Assembly: GCA_001004905.1 (NCBI GenBank)
Contig: LCRY01000002.1
Span: 199,251 to 263,250, forward strand
From: Parcubacteria group bacterium GW2011_GWA1_56_13
GTDB taxonomy: Bacteria > Patescibacteriota > Minisyncoccia > Phycocordibacterales > Phycocordibacteraceae
Length of the DNA stretch: 64,000 nucleotides
Reading direction: 5' to 3'
Shown: one piece after another, positions 5,125 through 22,419 of the stretch
Numbering within the stretch: position 1 is the stretch's first letter
Layout: the number at the start of each line of letters is the position of its first letter
Notes under the pieces: generated by a model
Seen by the model: the letters and a program-made list of their open reading frames with translations, nothing else
Database searches by the model: none
What the model was told of the DNA's origin: nothing
Position numbers and translations under genes: made by a program

Positions 5125-5284
5125 TTGGGCAGTATACCCCCTCACCGGCACTGCATCTACACCCCGGCGCCGAAGGGTGATGCAGAGCGCCGGTGTCACA
5201 CATTTCTTGCGGAGTGCGTCTTGTGTTGAGAGGGTTCTCTCTGACTCTCGGCTTACTTTTCTCCCTATGTATTATTGATTAGGT

Positions 5285-5755
5285 ATGAATAACGGTACAT
5301 TGTGGTCCGCCCTTGTCGCGTCCATTGTCTTCGGCGGCGTTGTCCTTGCGGCATACGGCCTTCTGGGCGGTCTCTTTGCCGTTTCTTCCTCCCCGCTGAA
5401 GAACGAAACGGCAGCGAAGACCGCCGCAATCGCCGCCCCGACGGCTATCGCGGTTCCCACCGCCGCGACCAAAGCTGCAAAGAGCGTGATGTCTTCGACC
5501 GCCATCCTGTACGGCACGGTGGGTCCTCATGACTCGCCGGTGCGATACTGGTTTGAATACGGTCCCGACCCGCTCCTCAGTGCGGTCCTGGTTCGCACGA
5601 CCCCTCGACTGCCGCTTGACGTTCGTACTGAAGAAACAACGGTTGAAATCGGCATCTTCGACCTCGCCCCCCACACGACGTACTACTTCCGTATCGTCGC
5701 CGATACGGACGCAGGAGTGGCGCGCGGAGAACCTGCGTCATTCAGGACGAAATAG
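5285..5755 (+). CDS. membrane-anchored protein with a fibronectin-III-like domain
   Basis: N-terminal TM, Ala/Thr/Pro linker, then YWFEYG...TYYFRIVA, typical of FN3/PKD folds. Confidence 0.55.
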   Translation: MNNGTLWSALVASIVFGGVVLAAYGLLGGLFAVSSSPLKNETAAKTAAIAAPTAIAVPTAATKAAKSVMSSTAILYGTVGPHDSPVRYWFEYGPDPLLSAVLVRTTPRLPLDVRTEETTVEIGIFDLAPHTTYYFRIVADTDAGVARGEPASFRTK

Positions 5756-5759
5756 GCGT

Positions 5760-6353
5760 TTAGGAGCTGTTCGGACGGTCGTCGGAATTATTCCTAACGA
5801 GCAAATGGGTGAACCAGCCGAGGAAACCGGATGTCTTTTCGTTCACGACTACGAAATCCCGGATCCTCGTCTGTTCTTTCTCAAGTGCTCGTATTTGGGC
5901 CGTGAGAATGGTGCGCTCGGTAGTGTCTGTCGTGCTGGCGAGGAGGGTTTGTAGTTCGGCGAGATGCCGTCGCGTTTTTTCCATCTCGGCTTCAAGTACA
6001 CCGAGATTCTTCGGATCGCTTCCGAAGAAAAGGCGCGCGACGGCTCCGCGGCTCGCCGTTTCCTGGATGGCCTCGGTCGCTGCCGTCATGGAATCGATCT
6101 GCGCCTCCGCGATCCGACGCATGTGCGCACCTACCGCGCTTGTCGCGCCCTTTTTCTTTGCGATATAAAGGAGCGACTCGGCGAAGGATGCTACGGTGCT
6201 CCGATGATCTTCGGCTATGAGCTGTCCGCGAACGCTCTCATTTATGGTACGGCGGGGAGTTCCTTCCGTATTGTGAACGGCATGCGCGACAAAGGCGGTC
6301 GAAGCCGAAAGAGCGACCGTGCATGCCATAAGCGCCATGAACCTTCGTCCCAT
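5760..6353 (-). CDS. secreted hypothetical protein (DUF5667-like, coiled coil)
   Basis: Signal peptide MGRRFMALMACTVALSASTAFVAHA; start taken at ATG 6353. Confidence 0.55.
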   Translation of the reverse strand: MGRRFMALMACTVALSASTAFVAHAVHNTEGTPRRTINESVRGQLIAEDHRSTVASFAESLLYIAKKKGATSAVGAHMRRIAEAQIDSMTAATEAIQETASRGAVARLFFGSDPKNLGVLEAEMEKTRRHLAELQTLLASTTDTTERTILTAQIRALEKEQTRIRDFVVVNEKTSGFLGWFTHLLVRNNSDDRPNSS

Positions 6354-6364
6354 ACACGCTGTGT

Positions 6365-6583
6365 TTACGGTGTATAAGAATTGTTCTGCGTTCCTCCTGT
6401 CGGGGCGGGAATCGTCACGTTTATATTCGTGCCGTTCGGCGCCGGCGGGACGGCGGCGCGCCGATAGTTGACCCAAAAGTATGCGCCGATACCGACCACT
6501 GCGAGGAGTATGATGACCGCGACCACCCAGCCAGCATTCCCGTCGCCATTATCCGACCGCGGTGTATTGATTACCGTTGTCAT
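6365..6583 (-). CDS. small membrane protein (72 aa)
   Basis: Single TM segment WVVAVIILLAVVGIGAYFWV, on the same strand just upstream of the previous gene. Confidence 0.45.
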   Translation of the reverse strand: MTTVINTPRSDNGDGNAGWVVAVIILLAVVGIGAYFWVNYRRAAVPPAPNGTNINVTIPAPTGGTQNNSYTP

Positions 6584-6947
6584 ACTGTGAATTCCTGATC
6601 TTGTAATCGTCCAATCCTGCCCAAGGGGGCCGTGCTAAGGGAACGGGTATTACAGAAAGTTGTAATGCCTCGTCGCTTCGGGCGGCTTACGGTCGTGGGT
6701 GGCGTGTAGGAGTCAAATTATTATTTAACATAATTTCTTCTATGAACGAGACGCGCACGAAAGATCCGCAGACGGACCCGGAGAAGCACGGCCAAGATGA
6801 TGAGAAAAAGGCGGAGGAAGAAAGAAAGAGGAGGGAAGGAGGGAATCCATAATGCGCGACTCACGGCCGCCCCAGGAACGGCCGTGAGTCGTTTCAAAGG
6901 AGGTCTCGGTGCGAAGAAAATGGTCGCTTTGTTATACTGCCCCTTCG

Positions 6948-7379
6948 ATGGCGAAATTATATGTTGATAAGAAAATAAGGATCAATGCGCCGGCGCAGAA
7001 AGTCTGGGAAGCGCTGACCAGCCGCGCATGCACGGACATATGGTCGCTTGAATTCGGAAGCGATGGTCCGCTCATGCATGTCGAGTCCGATTGGCAGCTC
7101 GGAAGCCCGGTGCTTTGGAAAGACGAGGAGGGAACCCTGCTCGTGCAGGGAATCGTAACGGCCGTAACGCCGCGGAAAATGATGCGCTATACGGTCTTCG
7201 ATACGCGCACTGAACGTCCTGAAACAAGCCCGGAAGACGGCATTACCTATGAGCTCACCGAACAGGAGGGGAATATTGCCGAGGATAAAAACGCTTGCCG
7301 AAGTGGAATTGCCGTAACGTCCTTCATGCGAAACACATTTGAAGTGCGAGACACTACCACGGCGCGATTTATCCGTTAA
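6948..7379 (+). CDS. SRPBCC-family protein (AHSA1/polyketide-cyclase-like)
   Basis: INAPAQKVWEALT... pattern of the Bet v1/AHSA1 fold; start at ATG 6948. Confidence 0.6.
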   Translation: MAKLYVDKKIRINAPAQKVWEALTSRACTDIWSLEFGSDGPLMHVESDWQLGSPVLWKDEEGTLLVQGIVTAVTPRKMMRYTVFDTRTERPETSPEDGITYELTEQEGNIAEDKNACRSGIAVTSFMRNTFEVRDTTTARFIR

Positions 7380-7388
7380 CGCATCCTC

Positions 7389-7550
7389 ATGTTGGTAACC
7401 ATTGCTGTCATTCTTTTCATTCTGTGGTTCCTCGGTATTGTCGGCGTCTACACAATCGGCTGGTTCATCCATCTGCTCCTCATACTCGCGATAATCTCGG
7501 TCTTGATCCGCGTGATTTACGGCGAGTACCCTTTCGGTCCGAATCCCTAG
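7389..7550 (+). CDS. Lmo0937-family small membrane protein (53 aa, below the ORF-track cutoff)
   Basis: Translates to MLVTIAVILFILWFLGIVGVYTIGWFIHLLLILAIISVLIRVIYGEYPFGPNP*. Confidence 0.6.
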   Translation: MLVTIAVILFILWFLGIVGVYTIGWFIHLLLILAIISVLIRVIYGEYPFGPNP

Positions 7551-7568
7551 AGCGAAATAGCCGCGTGT

Positions 7569-7597
7569 TGACATTTTAGTTCAAACTCACGATAGTA
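7569..7597 (+). promoter_or_regulatory. promoter (TTGACA, 17 nt, GATAGT) upstream of the algH-like gene
   Basis: Read directly; a GGGGG RBS precedes the ATG at 7649. Confidence 0.4.
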
Positions 7598-7648
7598 CGA
7601 GCGGAAGGCGCTCATTGTCAGGCCTTCATTCCCAACCAGGGGGCTCTC

Positions 7649-8245
7649 ATGGAGAAACTTCGTCGTGCAATCCTCACTATCCTCTGCGGACTCGTCCTTT
7701 CGCTCGCTTACGTTTCACCGGCGGCGGCGCAGACCATCGATCTCGGAAAGCCGCTTCTCCTCGTCGCCGCGCCTGGTTTGAGCGGCTTCTACGGTCGCAC
7801 GGTGCTGATCGCCGTACCGGTGAAGGACGAACACTTCGGCTTCATCCTGAATCGTTCGATGGGGATGAAAATGACGCAGCTATTTCCCGACCATTTGCCT
7901 TCGGCCAAGGTCGTTGACCCGATCTATCTCGGCGGGCCGCAGTTGCCAGAAGCGCTCTTTGCGCTCCTGCGCCATGATCCCGGGAAACCTTCGCTGCGCC
8001 TTCTTACAGACCTCTTCGTGATCTCCACCAGAGGCCTCATCGATAAGGTCATCGAGGAGACGCCGAACGAGGCGCGCTACTTTACCGGATTCGTGGGCTG
8101 GAGGCGTGGCGAACTCGCGTCTGAACTCAAAAGCGGGTACTGGTACGCACTCGATGCCGACGCGGATGCCGTTTTTCACGGGGCGCCGGACGCCATGTGG
8201 GAGGAGTTTCTCCAAAAAGCGCAGATGAGCAGGGACGGCATCTGA
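7649..8245 (+). CDS. YqgE/AlgH family protein (UPF0301) with an apparent N-terminal signal peptide
   Basis: FILNRS...GGP pattern of DUF179; N-terminal LTILCGLVLSLAYVSPAAAQ. Confidence 0.65.
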   Translation: MEKLRRAILTILCGLVLSLAYVSPAAAQTIDLGKPLLLVAAPGLSGFYGRTVLIAVPVKDEHFGFILNRSMGMKMTQLFPDHLPSAKVVDPIYLGGPQLPEALFALLRHDPGKPSLRLLTDLFVISTRGLIDKVIEETPNEARYFTGFVGWRRGELASELKSGYWYALDADADAVFHGAPDAMWEEFLQKAQMSRDGI

Positions 8246-8355
8246 CGCTGATGTTTTCGAAGCCGCGCGGGGTGTCCTCCACCCGCGCGGCTTCTCTTAT
8301 TCGCCCTCCGAAGTGTTGGGTCAAAACGAGCGGTGTCTGTTGTATACTTGCTCCT

Positions 8356-9411
8356 ATGAACACAAAGGTGCTACGACCCTATTTTCTTGTCGCGCTTATC
8401 ACGATTTCGTTCATATTGACCTTTTTTATTTTCCGCCCGTTCCTCATTATCCTGGTCCTGGCGGGCGTATTCGCCGTGGTGCTTCAGCCCTTGTACCAGG
8501 GAGTCCTTCGCGGCATGAGCGGTTCGCCGGGGTTGGCCGCGTTCGCGACGATGCTATTGTCGGTGTTATGCATTCTGATCCCGGTCATGTTCATTGCGAC
8601 ACAGATAGCAGGCGACGCACATGATTTGTACACTTCGCTTTCAGACGGTAGCGGGGAAACCTATCTTGGCTCGATCCTCCAATACACAAACGATGTCGCA
8701 GAAAAATACGTGCCGAGTTTTGCGCTTTCCAGAACGGAATTTTCGGCGGCTGCCGTTGACGAGTACGTAAAAGGCGGCCTGACATGGCTGGTGCAGAATG
8801 TGGGCGGAGCCTTCGGCGGAGTTGCCCGATTCCTCGTCAGTCTTTTTATCTTCCTGATCGCGCTCTACTATTTTCTTCGTGACGGCGCCAAGATCAAACA
8901 GATAATCGTGAAAGCAAGCCCTCTTGCCGATAGCAACGATGAGATCGTGTTCGCGCGGCTCGAGCTCGCCATAAATTCGGTCATTCGAGGAAGCCTTTTA
9001 ATAGCGTCCATACAGGGCATCTTGACCGGCATAGGATTCACCCTTTTTGGCGTGCCAAACAGTGTTTTGTGGGGAGTGGTGGCCGCGCTTGCCGCGCTCA
9101 TTCCCGGCGTCGGAACCTCGCTTGTTCTCGTACCCGCGATTGCATATCTGTTCATTACCGGCGCGACGATGCCGGCGGTCGGGCTTCTGGTTTGGAGCAT
9201 AGCGGCCGTCGGTCTGATCGACAATCTGCTCGGACCTAAGTTGATGGGGAAGGGAATGCATCTCCATCCCCTTATCGTGCTTCTTTCGGTATTCGGCGGC
9301 CTTGCATTTTTCGGTACGGCCGGCCTCTTTCTCGGGCCGCTCAGCGTCAGCCTCTTATTCACGCTCCTATCCCTCTATCGCCACATGGCACCGGAATTGA
9401 CGACGCTTTAA
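8356..9411 (+). CDS. AI-2E family transporter (PerM/YhhT, UPF0118)
   Basis: Eight TM helices; ...LIPGVG...GLLGP motifs of the AI-2E family. Confidence 0.8.
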   Translation: MNTKVLRPYFLVALITISFILTFFIFRPFLIILVLAGVFAVVLQPLYQGVLRGMSGSPGLAAFATMLLSVLCILIPVMFIATQIAGDAHDLYTSLSDGSGETYLGSILQYTNDVAEKYVPSFALSRTEFSAAAVDEYVKGGLTWLVQNVGGAFGGVARFLVSLFIFLIALYYFLRDGAKIKQIIVKASPLADSNDEIVFARLELAINSVIRGSLLIASIQGILTGIGFTLFGVPNSVLWGVVAALAALIPGVGTSLVLVPAIAYLFITGATMPAVGLLVWSIAAVGLIDNLLGPKLMGKGMHLHPLIVLLSVFGGLAFFGTAGLFLGPLSVSLLFTLLSLYRHMAPELTTL

Positions 9412-9461
9412 TCCGGCGTCGTACCGCGCGGTATATACGTCGCCCCGGATGGGGTCCGTGG

Positions 9462-9920
9462 TCAGGGATTTTTAACCACCAAGGTGGCCATGACACTAGC
9501 GTCTTCACCGGCAACGACGACCTGATAGGTTCCCGGCACAAGCGCGACCGAATCCGAATAGGACCAGCGACCCTTCACTACGGGCACATCCGCCGCGCCG
9601 ACGATGCCGATACCATCGCTGTTGTTGATGACTATCGCGATTTTTGAGACATTGGCCGTTCCCGTGATAGTGGGGTACGCCGAGGTTGAAATGAGGGACT
9701 GAGCGTCAAACCGTACCGACAATACGCTCTTCTTAGTCGTACTTCCGAAGAGAAACGTCGGCTGTGCGCCGGTCGCCGTGACCTGCGACGTTGTTGCGGC
9801 CGGATTTTGCTGCGTGGTGCCTGCCGTCGTCGGCGCGGATGCGGGGCGGAGGAAAAAGAAACTGGCGGCGATGATAATAAGAAGAGCGGTAATCATTCCG
9901 AGCGCGACTTTGGTGTTCAT
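9462..9920 (-). CDS. secreted or membrane-anchored hypothetical protein
   Basis: Signal anchor MNTKVALGMITALLIIIAASFFF; Thr-rich linker; beta-rich C-terminus. Confidence 0.5.
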   Translation of the reverse strand: MNTKVALGMITALLIIIAASFFFLRPASAPTTAGTTQQNPAATTSQVTATGAQPTFLFGSTTKKSVLSVRFDAQSLISTSAYPTITGTANVSKIAIVINNSDGIGIVGAADVPVVKGRWSYSDSVALVPGTYQVVVAGEDASVMATLVVKNP

Positions 9921-10022
9921 AGCCCAAAGTATACGACACCACGGGCCAGTCGCAATATAAAACAATATAAAAACAGAAACCGCTCGAACAGACGCAGTGT
10001 CTGTTCAAGCGGCAGGGTTTCT

Positions 10023-10196
10023 TTAGCGCGCGTTCCACCTGCGGAGCCGCGGAACTAGAACGAACGCCTGGAGGAAGCAAACGGCGAAGAATACGACGCC
10101 TGTCGCGATGGAGCCGGTTAGATTCCCATCGGCGAGCGCGTATAGAAAGAATGCGCCAAATACAAGGATGAGAATGATCGAGACGGTCTTGGCCAT
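10023..10196 (-). CDS. small two-helix membrane protein (57 aa, below the ORF-track cutoff)
   Basis: MAKTVSIILILVFGAFFLYALADGNLTGSIATGVVFFAVCFLQAFVLVPRLRRWNAR*; RBS AAGGAAAT; near-consensus promoter upstream; hairpin terminator downstream. Confidence 0.55.
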   Translation of the reverse strand: MAKTVSIILILVFGAFFLYALADGNLTGSIATGVVFFAVCFLQAFVLVPRLRRWNAR

Positions 10197-10234
10197 GGTA
10201 TTTCCTTACGAGTAGAGGAATATGTTCCGCGCAC

Positions 10235-10263
10235 ATTATGTATTTCAATGCCTGATATGTCAA
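10235..10263 (-). promoter_or_regulatory. near-consensus sigma70 promoter (TTGACA, 17 nt, CATAAT) for the 57-aa membrane protein gene
   Basis: Reverse complement reads TTGACATATCAGGCATTGAAATACATAAT. Confidence 0.55.
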
Positions 10264-10284
10264 GTCCTGCTCCGGGAGCAGGAC
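10264..10284. repeat. perfect 21-bp palindrome GTCCTGCTCCGGGAGCAGGAC; shares 17 nt with the tRNA-3'-end-like fragment at 10452-10475
   Basis: Read directly. Confidence 0.8.
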
Positions 10285-10407
10285 CATCGGAATTTCTCTT
10301 CCGCAACTCAAACACTCGCCGCCGCGAGTGTTTGGTCGTGTCCGCGACTCGCGACCTGCACTGCTGTGCAGGTGCCCGCTCCGTCTCTTCGAGTTCTGCA
10401 CCCCGGT

Positions 10408-10452
10408 AGAAAAAGAAAAGAACTGGAGACATGCTCCAGCCCTTTCTTTTTT
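10408..10452. terminator. bidirectional rho-independent terminator (stem CTGGAG/CTCCAG, loop ACATG, with U tracts on both strands)
   Basis: Plus strand: hairpin then CCCTTTCTTTTTT. Minus strand: hairpin then TTCTTTTCTTTTTCT. Confidence 0.65.
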
Positions 10453-10478
10453 GCTCCGGGAGCAGGACTCGAACCTGC
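10452..10478 (-). other. tRNA 3'-end-like fragment (T-arm GCAGG-TTCGAGT-CCTGC plus acceptor 3' strand TCCCGGA-G); resembles the 3' end of the adjacent tRNA-Asn; no complementary 5' acceptor strand found
   Basis: Minus strand reads GCAGGTTCGAGTCCTGCTCCCGGAGCA, against tRNA-Asn ACAGGTTCGAGTCCTGTCTCCGGAGCCA. Confidence 0.5.
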
Positions 10479-10562
10479 AACCAACGCCTTAACCCCAGTA
10501 GTACAGCAAAGCTGACTACGGGGCAGGCACGGCGCTGCGGCATATACCTATGCACCAACTCT

Positions 10563-10637
10563 TGGCTCCGGAGACAGGACTCGAACCTGTAACCACCTCG
10601 TTAACAGCGAGATGCTCTACCATTGAGCTACTCCGGA
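10563..10637 (-). tRNA. tRNA-Asn (GTT), CCA encoded
   Basis: Cloverleaf folded by hand: acceptor TCCGGAG/CTCCGGA, D-stem GCTC/GAGC, anticodon loop CTGTTAA, T-arm ACAGG-TTCGAGT-CCTGT, discriminator G then CCA. Confidence 0.85.
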
Positions 10638-10767
10638 GCCAAAGTTTGGTGCCAGGCCATTGACCCTGATGAGATAGCCATAGGCGGCATCTCACGGAGC
10701 AAGGCTATCCCGGAATGTCTTTGCATGTTAACCGAAAAATCATATATCGCAATGATAGAATTGCGGC

Positions 10768-12441: not shown

Positions 12442-13809
12442 CTACGGACGGCTCGCGGCGCGTGGACCGGCGTACTCCATTTCCCGTTTTCCTTCGGGAA
12501 TAACCCGCTCGATGATGAATTCGTCGCCTCGGAAGGATGCCTTCACTACCTTCATGCGTTTTCCATGTTCGAAAAAATACGTGCCTATGGTGTCGGCATA
12601 CGCACGGTATTTATTCCAATTCTCCTTCGCGGGAGCATCAAGCGAGAGGAGCCCGTCTTCCTTCCGTATCTTATACGCGCGAATGGCACGCGAAGCGTCT
12701 TGCGGAATTGGAACGATCTTGTCTTCCAGGTACGCGGGAATCGTGTGGACAAGCAGATCCGCGCCGATAGAAATAAGCCGTGGGCGCAGTTCTCGGGCGG
12801 TTTCGCCGTTCTCTACAGCGGTCTTCTCTTGCGCCAGAATATCGCCGGCGTCGAGTTCTTTCGTCATTTTCTGGATCGTGACCCCGGTACCCGCGTCGCC
12901 GGAGAGAAGCGCGGTCTCAAGCGGCGTGGCGCCGCGGTATTTCGGCAGAAGGGAATAATGGACGTTCAACACGCCTTTGGGGAATGCGTTGATGAGTGTT
13001 TCGGGGAAAATCTTTCCGTATGCGACGCAGACGGCATACTCGCATCCGAGCCCGGCGATCGCCGCGACGGTTTCGGCGTCCAGTTTTTCCGGCGTTATGA
13101 CCGGGATGCCGTATGCAAGGGCAAGTTTTTTCGTTTCCGAAGGAGTGAGCGTAAGTCCGCGGCCTCTTGGCGCGTCGGGAGAGGTGATGATAAGCGACGG
13201 TATGAAGCCGCGTTCAATGAGGATCGCAAGCGTGTCCCCCGCGACTTTCGGCGTGCCGAAAAATACGAACGGATGAAGCGACCCTTCCGGAATGCGGATG
13301 AGGCGTTCGGCATGGTCGGTGAAGAGGATCCCGTTCAGGTGGTCTATCTCGTGCTCGAATATCTGCGCTAATAGGCCGCCCGCGCCTCGTTTCAGGGTCG
13401 AGCCGTCGGGATTCTGCGCCTGTATGGTGACGCGCTCGTGCCGTTTAGTCGTTCCGTAGACTCCGTGGACCGAGAGACACCCTTCATCGGCTTCCGCGCG
13501 CTTGCGGGACGTCTTTACTATTTTCGGGTTGATATACACCTCGATGGTAGGTGGCGGGGGAGGCGACGGCGTGGCGCCTTTTTTGGTCGGAGCCGGAGGA
13601 GGCAGTGTGCGGTCCTTGCGCACGATAAAGAGGCGGTACGAAACGCCCACCTGCGGTGCGGCAAGCGCAACGCCTTCAGGAAACCGGTCGAGTGCCTCGG
13701 CCATGTCGCGTATGAGACGCTCAAGCTCGGGGGAGCCGAAGAGCTCCTCCGGCACCGGGCGCGCGATCTCGCGCAGTACCGGCGCCCCATCTTGCGTGAT
13801 TTCTTTCAT
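12442..13809 (-). CDS. bifunctional peptide deformylase / methionyl-tRNA formyltransferase fusion (Def-Fmt)
   Basis: N-terminal about 190 aa carry the Def motifs (GVALAAPQVG, EGCLS, HEIDHLNG). The C-terminal part carries Fmt motifs (FFGTP, HYSLLPKYRG). One uninterrupted ORF of 455 aa. Confidence 0.8.
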   Translation of the reverse strand: MKEITQDGAPVLREIARPVPEELFGSPELERLIRDMAEALDRFPEGVALAAPQVGVSYRLFIVRKDRTLPPPAPTKKGATPSPPPPPTIEVYINPKIVKTSRKRAEADEGCLSVHGVYGTTKRHERVTIQAQNPDGSTLKRGAGGLLAQIFEHEIDHLNGILFTDHAERLIRIPEGSLHPFVFFGTPKVAGDTLAILIERGFIPSLIITSPDAPRGRGLTLTPSETKKLALAYGIPVITPEKLDAETVAAIAGLGCEYAVCVAYGKIFPETLINAFPKGVLNVHYSLLPKYRGATPLETALLSGDAGTGVTIQKMTKELDAGDILAQEKTAVENGETARELRPRLISIGADLLVHTIPAYLEDKIVPIPQDASRAIRAYKIRKEDGLLSLDAPAKENWNKYRAYADTIGTYFFEHGKRMKVVKASFRGDEFIIERVIPEGKREMEYAGPRAASRP

Positions 13810-16184: not shown

Positions 16185-17219
16185 ATGGGAGCGATGACTT
16201 TCTTTTCTCCGAAACTGGGCATAGACCTCGGAACCACGAATATCCTCGTATTCGTTCCCGGCAAAGGCGTCATCATTAATGAGCCCTCGGTCGTTGCCGT
16301 CGGCAAAGCGCACGGCAAGAAGGGGGGCAACAAGATACTCGCCATCGGCGCGGAGGCGAAACAGATGATAGGCCGCACGCCCGACGACATTATCGCGTAC
16401 CGTCCGATGAAAGACGGCGTCATCGCTGACTACCGCATCACCGAGGCGATGCTCCGCTATTTCATAAAGAAAGCACTCGGCCATAATCCGTTCAAGCCGA
16501 CCGTGCTCATTTCGGTTCCCGCGGGCGTCACTTCGACCGAAAAGCGCGCCGTCATCGAGGCGGCGCTCAAGGCCGGCGCGAAGAATGCGTACGTGGTGAA
16601 AGAGCCGATACTCGCGGCTATCGGCGCGGGCATTCCCATCCACGAACCCATGGGGCGCATGGTCGCGGACATCGGAGGCGGGACCATAGACGTCGCCGTA
16701 ATATCGCTCGGCGGCATCGTCGCCTCGACGAGCGTGAAATGCGCGGGCGATCGGCTCGACCGCGCCATCATTGACCATGTGAAAAAACAGCACAATCTCT
16801 CCATCGGCGAAAAGACCGCGGAGGAATTGAAGATAAAAGTCGGAGCCGCAATACCGATGAACGAAGAACTCTCCATGGCAGTCAAAGGACGCGACCTCAT
16901 GAGCGGCCTGCCGCGCACCGTTGATATCTCCACGAACGACCTTGTGCAGGCCATGGCTCGTGAACTGCGCGAAATGACGCAGGCGGTGCGCAAGGTGCTC
17001 CAGGACACGCCGCCAGAACTTGCCGCCGACATCATCGATAACGGCATCATCCTTACCGGCGGCTCCTCCCAGCTCCGTCAGATGCCAGAGCTTGTGTATC
17101 GCCGCACGGGCGTCGTCGCAAAGCTCGGACAGGACCCTTATTTCTGCGTCGCGCGCGGCACCGGCGTCGCGCTCAAGCATTTGGATACGTACCAGAAAAG
17201 CATCTTGGCGAAGCAGTGA
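16185..17219 (+). CDS. mreB: rod shape-determining protein MreB (paralog 1)
   Basis: Actin-fold motifs GIDLGTTN, DIGGGTTD, ILTGGSS. Confidence 0.9.
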   Translation: MGAMTFFSPKLGIDLGTTNILVFVPGKGVIINEPSVVAVGKAHGKKGGNKILAIGAEAKQMIGRTPDDIIAYRPMKDGVIADYRITEAMLRYFIKKALGHNPFKPTVLISVPAGVTSTEKRAVIEAALKAGAKNAYVVKEPILAAIGAGIPIHEPMGRMVADIGGGTIDVAVISLGGIVASTSVKCAGDRLDRAIIDHVKKQHNLSIGEKTAEELKIKVGAAIPMNEELSMAVKGRDLMSGLPRTVDISTNDLVQAMARELREMTQAVRKVLQDTPPELAADIIDNGIILTGGSSQLRQMPELVYRRTGVVAKLGQDPYFCVARGTGVALKHLDTYQKSILAKQ

Positions 17220-21366: not shown

Positions 21367-22419
21367 ATGCCGAGATTCTCAAAAAGCTCCCTGTTCAGCA
21401 GTGATATCGCGATAGATCTCGGCACGACCAACACACTTGTCTACGTGCGCGGCCGCGGCGTCGTCATCAACGAGCCGTCGGTAGTTGCAGTGAACGACAA
21501 GACGCATCAGATGGTTGCCGTGGGAAGGGAAGCGAAGTCCATGCTCGGCAAGACGCCCGGGCATATCCGCGTCGTGCGCCCGCTCGCGCACGGCGTCATT
21601 TCCGACTTTGAGGTGACCGAAGAACTCCTCACGTACCTCATCAACAAAGCGCAGGGCGGCCGTGTCCGGCTCTTCGGGCCACGCGTCGTTATCGGAGTGC
21701 CGACCGGCGTGACCAACGTGCAGAGCCGCGCGGTGCGGGACGCGGCCAAAAACGCCGGCGCCCGCGAAGCCATCATCCTCGAGGAGCCGGTTGCGGGCGC
21801 CATCGGCGCGAAATTGCCGGTCTCGGAAGCGGTCGGGACGATGGTCCTCGATATCGGAGGCGGAACGACCGACATCGCGGTCATCTCGCTTAAGGGAATG
21901 GTCGCTTCCAGGAGTTCGCATGTCGCCGGAGACCGGTTCAATGAAAATATTATCGATTTTGTGCGAAGCGAGTTCAAGCTCGGCATCGGCGAGCGTACCG
22001 CCGAAGACGTCAAGATAGCCATCGGAACAGTCGTGCCGCTGCCAGAAACGCTTTCCCGAAGCGTGCGCGGCCGCGATTACGCGACGGGACTTCCGCGCGA
22101 GATAGTGCTCACCGATGCCCATATCCGCGAAGCCATTACCCCTTCTCTTGATGCGCTCATGGATGCCATGAAGGAAGTTATCGAAGTGACTCCGCCCGAA
22201 CTCCTTTCCGACATACTTCAACAGGGCGTAACCGTTTTTGGCGGCGGAGCGTTGCTTCGCGGCCTGCCGCAGATACTTGCAAAGATGCTCGGCGTGCCGG
22301 TGCGGGTCGCGGCCGATCCGCTTTCGGCGGTCGTGCGGGGAGCGGGCATTGTGACCGAAGACCCCGGGTCATACGAGGATTTCTTTATCGATGAGGAGGA
22401 CATTCTTAGCGAAGCGTAA
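21367..22419 (+). CDS. mreB: rod shape-determining protein MreB (paralog 2)
   Basis: Second actin-fold MreB; heads an mreB-mreC-mreD-mrdA operon. Confidence 0.9.
   Translation: MPRFSKSSLFSSDIAIDLGTTNTLVYVRGRGVVINEPSVVAVNDKTHQMVAVGREAKSMLGKTPGHIRVVRPLAHGVISDFEVTEELLTYLINKAQGGRVRLFGPRVVIGVPTGVTNVQSRAVRDAAKNAGAREAIILEEPVAGAIGAKLPVSEAVGTMVLDIGGGTTDIAVISLKGMVASRSSHVAGDRFNENIIDFVRSEFKLGIGERTAEDVKIAIGTVVPLPETLSRSVRGRDYATGLPREIVLTDAHIREAITPSLDALMDAMKEVIEVTPPELLSDILQQGVTVFGGGALLRGLPQILAKMLGVPVRVAADPLSAVVRGAGIVTEDPGSYEDFFIDEEDILSEA

Follow-up and report, generated by a model that had tools for sequence, protein, structure and literature searches.

Integration of a mobile element at the 3′ end of a tRNA gene leaves no relic of the 5′ end upstream, and the anticodon loop and the T-loop are reportedly the classical places at which integrases cross over. 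Tandem tRNA copies and their pseudogenes are common, and tRNA relics at recombination hot spots are already known. Processing stalks made of paired leader and trailer strands are known for the 16S and 23S rRNAs; we know of none for a single bacterial tRNA gene. In Patescibacteria, published tRNA-Asn(GUU) genes bear a group I intron at position 35/36, some with HNH genes (Nakagawa et al. 2026, PMC13011429), and phage T4 provides an example of a free-standing homing endonuclease, the GIY-YIG enzyme SegB, which lies in a tRNA gene cluster (PMC13096335). Here we analysed a tRNA-Asn locus in a stretch of 64,000 nucleotides (hereafter the window) of contig LCRY01000002.1, which belongs to a Candidatus Kaiserbacteria (Patescibacteria, candidate phyla radiation) from aquifer metagenomes, the genome of the window itself coming from the Rifle aquifer (Colorado). 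An initial annotation of this stretch had tentatively interpreted copies of a tRNA 3′ end downstream of an intact tRNA-Asn gene as decayed integrase attachment (att) sites or, alternatively, as a tRNA-like non-coding RNA. We found that the two ends of an older tRNA-Asn gene enclose the working one, and the reading that we lean towards is a gene-in-gene replacement at a tRNA-Asn hot spot, in which a structured, tRNA-bearing unit came to lie inside the remains of the resident tRNA-Asn.

Firstly, we characterised the working gene and the fragment downstream of it. The intact minus-strand tRNA-Asn(GTT) was recovered by both ARAGORN and Rfam, and its 75 nt are all identical to the plain tRNA-Asn of a syntenic relative (L058; loci in other genomes are designated by such numbers), which has no relics. 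The fragment initially described as a T-arm and acceptor strand mimicking the tRNA-Asn 3′ end is real and longer than claimed: in a repeat search, 82% identity with the 3′ half of the working tRNA, from the anticodon on, extended over 44 nt (10450-10493). When one genome per species was scanned for a 20-mer of this fragment, TTCGAGTCCTGCTCCCGGAG, 29 loci were obtained, and in most of them the 20-mer forms the genuine end of an entire tRNA-Asn gene (Patescibacteria and Polyangiales), at its 3′ side. Many of these loci share with the window the gene order PBP / PF1765-like / redoxin / def-fmt / EPSP synthase / MreB (tblastx), PBP being the Pfam name of the flanking PEBP-family protein. The tRNA-Asn allele of the syntenic relatives is TCCGGGATAGCTCAATGGTAGAGCAGCGCCCTGTTAAGGCGTTGGTTGCAGGTTCGAGTCCTGCTCCCGGAGCA (hereafter old-type). 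Syntenic Kaiserbacteria still have it, in some as a plain gene and in others with the known group I intron at 35/36, and its positions 34-75 are identical to the window fragment (42/42 against L026, L037, L038, L039 and L043), the left boundary of the fragment being ambiguous between G34 and A38. Since the old-type allele is carried by relatives with the window's gene order, it represents the ancestral gene of this locus. The working tRNA (new-type) differs from it at 12 positions, which form six base pairs, all compensated, and setting the new-type 5′ acceptor strand against the old 3′ strand creates an A.C mismatch. The working tRNA is therefore a separate allele, and not a hybrid of an old 5′ part and a new 3′ part.

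Secondly, we searched for the other end of the old gene. No 5′ acceptor strand had been found for the fragment in the initial annotation; it is present as an 11-nt 5′ relic, TCCGGGATAGC, located 77 nt upstream of the working tRNA on the same strand. The two relics keep the gene order and do not overlap, and positions 12-33 are gone. Thus, the old gene is split: positions 1-11 and about 34-75 remain, and 12-33 are replaced by about 217 nt. An equivalent relic, TCCGGGATAGTC, occurs at the corresponding position in L014, the closest relative of another species (76% identity in PBP). Judging from the sequence, the motif TTGCGA-16-TAACAT may be the old tRNA promoter, as it aligns with TTGCGG-16-TAGAAT ahead of the plain tRNA-Asn of L058, within a region that is 73% identical upstream of the relic; its score is 8/12, for a promoter-scan threshold of 9/12. 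Assembly artefact was ruled out as a source of this arrangement, because independent assemblies agree on it. The region is 100% identical on five independent contigs from NCBI, JGI and ENA, a second metagenome-assembled genome (GCA_003531405.1) differs from the window by one base over the region, and the PBP gene is identical on contig LCSC01000003.1 of GCA_001005015.1 and on several contigs from JGI, ENA and Logan, an SRA-wide assembly. Two Logan contigs (L004 and L005) begin at window positions 10496 and 10499, exactly where the old 3′ half starts, probably because other Parcubacteria from these samples have the 42-nt sequence in their tRNA-Asn genes too.

Thirdly, we analysed the unit that separates the relics (roughly 217 nt, 10494-10710). 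It is composed of a spacer hairpin, the tRNA on a 15-bp stalk and a hairpin module of about 54 nt. The stalk belongs to an inverted repeat (I3) of 22 nt, 86% complementary, in which 15 bp between leader and trailer prolong the acceptor stem; the duplex reaches −28.9 kcal/mol, against a median of −11.2 kcal/mol for the 88 tRNAs in all fetched loci. A metagenome scan for the new-type T-arm/acceptor 25-mer yielded a single further case, L062, from a Nomurabacteria-like, distant Parcubacterium. There, a promoter is followed by a different 5′ tRNA-Asn stump, TCCGCAGTAGCTCAGT, by a 19-bp stalk around a complete tRNA-Asn and by a homologous module. The stalks of the window and of L062 (−29 to −30 kcal/mol, median −11) are both exceptional, and three compensatory pair changes and one wobble change distinguish them. 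The G.U pairs of the stalk are confined to the tRNA-sense strand; as such pairs work on that strand only, this points to a structure at the RNA level. The module aligns with L062:304-358 with a local score of 47 (null 13.3 ± 2.4; none of 500 shuffles scored as high), and in its hairpin seven pairs are invariant, three are changed to G.U and two are broken in L062. It matched no Rfam family and is not similar to the tRNA-Asn introns of Patescibacteria. Two identities proposed for it were dropped: a decayed tRNA 5′ half, for which the similarity is weak (p = 0.02-0.5) and which we do not claim, and a small protein, since, by our own reading, indels shift the frame between the two copies and most of the other changes are non-synonymous.

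The upstream side of the unit is also found in L014. Relic, spacer and leader together are identical at 67 of 77 positions (87%) between this locus and the window, while the sequences upstream of the relic, at 52% identity, are unrelated; the stem of the spacer hairpin is kept and its loop is variable. The leader changes in L014 are T to C at −6 and CCTGG to CCCAG. The tRNA behind this common leader is of the old type in L014, where the contig ends in its anticodon loop. Because of this old-type inner tRNA, one insertion shared by descent fails to account for the window and L014 together, and the difference reflects either independent insertions or a later exchange of the inner gene. Through a neighbouring 152-aa protein we recovered further contigs of the L014 organism, L158 and L159; these contigs reach no more than 185 nt upstream of the small gene. 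The search for a pre-insertion tRNA-Asn site for L062 through its neighbour, a PaaX-family transcriptional regulator, gave only relatives without tRNA-Asn there, and the PBP-gene route to further syntenic relatives gave P0004 and P0011, neither of which has a tRNA-Asn next to the PBP gene. Another stalked tRNA was observed on a 429-kb AT-rich contig classed as viral in IMG/VR (aquifer sample 3300025030): in L126:4000-4150, on the minus strand, tRNAs are called as Leu(taa) and Pyl(cta), which may be suppressors, and the Leu(taa) tRNA has leader-trailer inverted repeats of −19.7 kcal/mol.

One alternative is that the whole layout is a functional composite RNA kept by selection. It could serve as a scaffold for tRNA-Asn processing, or else the outer parts might persist as a two-piece tRNA-like RNA when the inner tRNA has been cut out, with the stalk and the old acceptor stem joining the pieces. 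In the minimum free energy fold (z = −6.6) the T arm is retained, and the 5′ relic does pair with the acceptor 3′ strand of the old gene. The intact 42 nt of the 3′ relic, the conservation of relic, spacer and leader in L014 when the flanks are not conserved, the compensatory changes and sense-strand G.U pairs of the stalk, and a module about 80% conserved across very distant genomes all agree with such an RNA. Against it, the outer RNA would have no D arm and an interrupted anticodon loop, and L062 has neither an outer acceptor 3′ strand nor a T arm, so that the outer pairing is not conserved. Moreover, no Rfam family was matched, the covariation comes from two sequences only, and 10258-10450 is not conserved in the nearest relative. 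We consider a composite RNA of this kind unlikely. The features of the locus are listed in Table 1.

Table 1. Features of the tRNA-Asn locus, in the direction of transcription of the tRNA (window coordinates).
Feature	Position	Strand	Basis
Putative ancestral tRNA promoter, TTGCGA-16-TAACAT	10725-10752	−	Read from sequence; ends about 10 nt upstream of the 5′ relic
5′ relic of old-type tRNA-Asn, positions 1-11	10704-10714	−	Exact match to the tRNA-Asn 5′ end of syntenic relatives
Spacer with conserved hairpin (GAGAUGCC / GGC-U-AUCUC)	10653-10703	−	Predicted fold
Leader strand of stalk, pairing with trailer	10638-10652	−	Inverted repeat I3
Functional tRNA-Asn(GTT), new-type, CCA encoded	10563-10637	−	ARAGORN; Rfam RF00005, 72.5 bits
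Trailer strand of stalk, overlapping the G73-CCA of the tRNA	10552-10566	−	Inverted repeat I3, duplex energy, comparison with L062
Linker and hairpin module (GGTATATGCC...CCCCGTAGTCAGCTTTGCTGTACTACTGGGG)	10497-10548	−	Homology to L062:304-358
3′ relic of ancestral tRNA-Asn (G34 to A75)	10452-10493	−	42/42 against syntenic relatives
Bidirectional intrinsic terminator, directly after the old 3′ end	10416-10446	both	Terminator scan, both strands
Inverted degenerate copy of T-loop and acceptor 3′ strand, lengthening the terminator stem	10388-10418	+	Inverted repeat I1, predicted fold
GC-rich hairpins, lineage-specific	10285-10387		Inverted repeat I7 and fold; e.g. 11-bp perfect stem at 10309-10334
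Second copy of the old tRNA-Asn 3′ region, more decayed than the first	10264-10307	−	Exact 17-mer (10268-10284) in palindrome; rest aligned by hand
Promoter TTGACA-17-CATAAT of the 57-aa membrane-protein open reading frame (10023-10196)	10235-10263	−	Promoter scan, 11/12

We assessed whether the relics could derive from an intron-bearing gene, the first lead of this analysis, in which the fragment would be the orphan 3′ exon of a tRNA-Asn with a group I intron and the spacer the remnant of that intron. The syntenic loci L024, L044, L047 and L048 carry exactly this layout, with an intron at 35/36 (PMC13011429), and among the loci with the 20-mer seven from Patescibacteria have no tRNA called by ARAGORN, the 3′ part being preceded by a group I intron motif, GATATAGTCC; six of these seven score 67-92 bits with RF00028. 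The window behaves differently. RF00028 had no match in 10150-10750 at E values up to 10, an nhmmer profile built from the introns of five relatives had none at E values up to 100, and alignment of the spacer with the seven introns was no better than for shuffled sequences (p = 0.48). In addition, G34, U35 and U36 are contiguous in the window (GGGG-T-TAAGG), as opposed to the relatives' ...(A/G)TG|TAAGG, in which the omega-G is followed by U36, and the 5′ relic stops at position 11 and not at U35. A decayed intron was therefore rejected on the results of Rfam, nhmmer, the shuffled alignments and the boundary, and we regard this origin as very improbable indeed.

The same gene is visited by other elements in these lineages. 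Stumps of the TCCGGGATAGC type also lie upstream of full tRNA-Asn genes in L036, L048 and L050. Those of L036 (808-818, minus strand) and L048 (6056-6130, plus strand) are 5′ stumps or decayed tRNA-like copies, 65-190 nt upstream of an intron-containing tRNA-Asn; the L048 copy has a 16-nt hairpin in its D loop, and the L036 spacer looks highly structured. In L050:5700-5990 (minus strand; Candidatus Yanofskybacteria, PCXQ01000004.1), the stump consists of positions 1-11, a 31-nt hairpin insertion and positions 13-20, and an 81-aa GIY-YIG open reading frame (Pfam E = 1.3e-17) fills the space between stump and full tRNA-Asn, with its stop codon inside the tRNA, which may represent the arrangement of a free-standing homing endonuclease at tRNA-Asn. 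The 5′ parts of the L044 and L049 introns (upstream of L044:4612 and L049:2231) contain open reading frames with a C-terminal CxxC...CANCHRE motif, whose weak match to Pfam HNH (E = 0.003, on partial sequence) agrees with PMC13011429. The recurrence of introns with HNH genes, of a GIY-YIG gene and of stumps makes tRNA-Asn a repeated target of selfish elements. In the window, no endonuclease open reading frame was found between stump and tRNA, where there are only 66 non-coding nt. An Rfam LOOT RNA (RF03000, 76.4 bits) was noticed on the Yanofskybacteria contig of L036 (4586-4708, plus strand).

We then considered the region downstream of the 3′ relic. The elements described initially are present: the hairpin of the 88-nt spacer next to the working tRNA and, farther downstream, the GC-rich hairpins, terminator-like hairpins on both strands, a perfect palindrome of 21 bp and the near-consensus promoter abutting it all lie at the places described. 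The 17-mer GTCCTGCTCCCGGAGCA occurs in exactly two minus-strand copies (10452-10468 and 10268-10284) separated by 167 nt, the second inside the palindrome, whose arms are 10264-10273 and 10275-10284 around one central base (10+1+10, I9). With up to three mismatches the 17-mer has five matches in the window, for 0.17 expected from shuffles. By hand alignment, GTTGCGG (10301-10307)...TTCCGATG-GTCCTGCTCCCGGAGCA corresponds to positions ~45-75 with three indels; the second 17-mer seems to be what is best preserved of a copy that was once longer and has decayed. The arms of the inverted repeat I1 that lengthens the terminator stem are 31 nt long and 77% complementary. The fold of 10255-10562 is extremely stable (z = −10.95). 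The further copies expected of a repeated or mobile short element (MITE/REP-like) were looked for in the 64-kb window, and none were found for this downstream stretch, 10285-10387 included (20 shared 11-mers, 17 expected by chance). Comparison of 10258-10500 with the nearest relative, L158, gave no significant homology; what the two do have in common is the TTGACA promoter, which in L158 precedes the 59-aa homologue of the small membrane-protein gene.

Neither a tRNA-like RNA of about 190 nt, the second proposal of the initial annotation, nor any known RNA emerged from this region. There is no Rfam family for it, and the lack of conservation of 10258-10500 in the nearest relative does not favour it. 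ARAGORN and Rfam, at gathering thresholds and at E values up to 10, found no complete tRNA at 10450-10493 or at the palindrome and no known non-coding RNA over the fragment, by which a complete hidden tRNA, a permuted transfer-messenger RNA (tmRNA) and a known non-coding RNA were ruled out. Over 10250-10560, Rfam 15 gave only weak hairpin-type matches (for instance mir-627, 23.9 bits for a gathering threshold of 86), and L062 behaved alike.

The att reading supposes one or two integrative elements that entered the tRNA-Asn gene at its anticodon loop and its T-loop; insertion would have duplicated the 3′ end, and nearly all of the inserted DNA would later have been lost. Several observations accord with it: a tRNA 3′ end is repeated here in direct orientation, the two 17-mers are identical over 17/17 nt, and the boundaries lie at the two classical crossover places, the main fragment starting at G34-A38, in the anticodon loop, and the 17-mer at G59, in the T-loop, and both running to A75. 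In L024, TTGACA lies 4 nt after the tRNA 3′ end, as it does after the second copy in the window; this matching spacing allows the 167-nt interval to be read as an insertion, although the chance of a coincidence is estimated at several per cent. The 20-mer also marks a duplication, full gene plus 3′ fragment, on a Polyangiales-type contig. The model does not hold for the main fragment, however, because this fragment is the 3′ part of a different allele (82% identity and the A.C mismatch in place of a copied 3′ end on a hybrid tRNA), because the 5′ relic is left unexplained and because there is no integrase. The copies are separated by 88 nt and 167 nt only, Pfam searches of the neighbouring open reading frames at 1-27 kb of the window revealed housekeeping genes and no integrase or transposase, and no island exists at the syntenic site of any relative compared. 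The second copy, which by hand alignment seems to run with indels to the variable loop, resembles a decayed longer duplicate rather than a crisp core. Exact matching against one viral collection, IMG/VR, revealed no attP with the 17-mer: its six matches all fall inside coding sequence, with no tRNA context, as expected of chance matches, and the new-type 3′ end has no match there. Two module patterns, searched for in the same way, gave chance matches at most, and a phage attP was dismissed on these grounds. Hence, what stands of the initial proposal is that true duplicates of a tRNA-Asn 3′ end occur here, at a recombination hot spot, and what falls is the integrase model for the main fragment. 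We judge integrase scars as the explanation of the locus to be quite unlikely; an ancient integrase event may nevertheless have given rise to the pair of 17-mers downstream, in which exact identity begins within the T-loop. The Polyangiales-type contig (CAWHLB010000026.1, 'delta proteobacterium', L040:5356-5375 and L041:2985-3061) carries a tRNA-Asn with an 8-nt anticodon loop (GTTT) and, elsewhere, a 3′ fragment starting in the anticodon stem, with nearly identical sequence downstream of the two copies: a classical island-type duplication of the same 3′ end.

A gene-in-gene replacement could have proceeded as follows. An ancestral old-type tRNA-Asn would have been split by a unit of ~217 nt that brought a complete, different allele on its stalk, together with the module. 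The old promoter and the old terminator would now drive a single precursor of ~290 nt, from which RNase P, at the 5′ end, and 3′-end processing would free the working tRNA, RNase III cleavage of the stalk perhaps helping; the ends of the old gene would be left as the relics. The 17-mer in its palindrome and the inverted copy by the terminator may be further, more decayed old 3′ ends from earlier recombination at the site. The least certain step is the arrival, which may have occurred by recombination into the resident gene via tRNA-Asn homology, possibly provoked by homing endonucleases.

Several points weigh against this replacement. There are only two or three instances of the unit, and the 3′ side of L014 is unseen, as its contig ends; the inner tRNA of L014 is old-type and not new-type, and a clear 3′ relic was not found in L062. 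The 3′ relic of the window is unchanged over 42 nt although the layout seems old (rough p about 0.04), and therefore a recent arrival, gene conversion or selection fits this identity better than a neutral relic does. No nuclease, integrase or other mobility gene that would account for the arrival was found in the window. Finally, similar debris could be left by the decay, through deletions, of a tandem array. In such an in-place decay, two or three local tRNA-Asn copies would have existed, the first and the last of which were mostly deleted, with no mobile unit involved. This would be in keeping with how common tandem copies and their pseudogenes are, with the decayed tRNA-like copy directly upstream of the functional gene in L048, and with the several partial copies, in both orientations, around the terminator of the window. 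Three observations speak for a replacement rather than for array decay: the relics are complementary, non-overlapping and ordered parts of one gene, the inner gene is a different allele with six compensated pair differences, and a homologous stalk and module stand behind a different type of 5′ stump in a distant lineage. In-place decay of an array is, in our view, improbable.

The surroundings of the locus were also surveyed. Downstream of the tRNA region, window positions 5200-10260 encode small unknown proteins, AlgH/DUF179, an AI-2E transporter and proteins of 152 aa and 57 aa. This block adjoins tRNA-Asn in the window species and probably in the L014/L158 organism, and in no other syntenic relative found, so that gene order breaks off on the 3′ side of tRNA-Asn. 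On the other side, a single open reading frame of 455 aa (12442-13809, minus strand) fuses peptide deformylase to methionyl-tRNA formyltransferase (Pfam Pep_deformylase and Formyl_trans_N/C); the two are separate adjacent genes in L018 (175 aa and 273 aa) and are fused in L014 and L163. Two MreB/Mbl paralogues (16185-17219 and 21367-22419, both on the plus strand) lie about 4 kb apart, with DNA polymerase III delta′, an M50 protease and a class II tRNA synthetase between them.

Intron-bearing tRNA-Asn genes have been published. In the literature searched we found no description of a working tRNA gene that lies enclosed by the head and the tail of its predecessor, nor of a conserved unit of stalk and module common to distant Parcubacteria. 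The locus illustrates that what looks like a textbook att scar can be something else, and for orphan tRNA-Asn pieces in Patescibacteria the first check should be which allele, and which intron state, the syntenic relatives have. It also depicts tRNA-Asn, an essential and probably single-copy gene in tiny genomes, as a battleground of introns, HNH and GIY-YIG genes and, here, nested replacement of a whole gene. The stalk and its compensatory changes suggest an RNase III-type route for a bacterial tRNA, possibly a new way of processing. A more speculative proposal, which we hold to be rather unlikely, is that the unit is a protein-less 'tRNA replacement cassette' that would spread among Parcubacteria via tRNA homology (for example by DNA uptake or at a break made by a homing endonuclease), destroy the resident gene and become indispensable by supplying the only working tRNA-Asn; in a bolder variant, cutting out the inner tRNA would leave a functional two-piece tRNA-like RNA. 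Should the unit prove mobile, it would represent a novel type of element, selfish or addictive, with a tRNA as its sole cargo.

We compared the locus with the known systems that it most resembles. With the group I intron tRNA-Asn genes (PMC13011429) it shares the gene, the phylum, the locus in relatives and an apparent orphan 3′ part that begins in the anticodon and is not called by ARAGORN. Unlike them, it has no detectable ribozyme core, its boundary is not at 35/36, its 5′ part ends at position 11, and a complete intron-less tRNA-Asn stands between its pieces. It recalls SegB-type loci in having a segment inserted between partial copies of its target gene, of which a functional copy persists; in contrast to these loci, the 66 nt between stump and tRNA hold no endonuclease gene. 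Split and permuted tRNA genes (Nanoarchaeum, Cyanidioschyzon) and two-piece tmRNA likewise have tRNA-like pieces separated in the gene, which a long helper helix could join after removal of the intervening part. The outer 3′ piece of the window differs from these in not being conserved in L062, the outer pieces cannot form a complete tRNA because positions 12-33 are missing, and no bulge-helix-bulge motif was seen by eye in the window. The stalk recalls those of rRNA processing by RNase III, in that a leader-trailer helix of 15-19 bp with compensatory changes prolongs the terminal stem of the mature RNA, but here it surrounds a single bacterial tRNA gene and cleavage by RNase III is only proposed. 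Finally, the locus resembles tRNA att sites and island scars (tyrosine-integrase attL/attR) by its direct 3′-end repeats downstream of an intact tRNA gene, by fragment boundaries in the anticodon loop and the T-loop and by a tRNA gene that marks a break in gene order. It differs from them by having no integrase or island, by repeats that copy an allele other than that of the working tRNA and by the presence of a 5′ relic, and the DNA between its repeats is a conserved structured unit that holds a whole tRNA gene.

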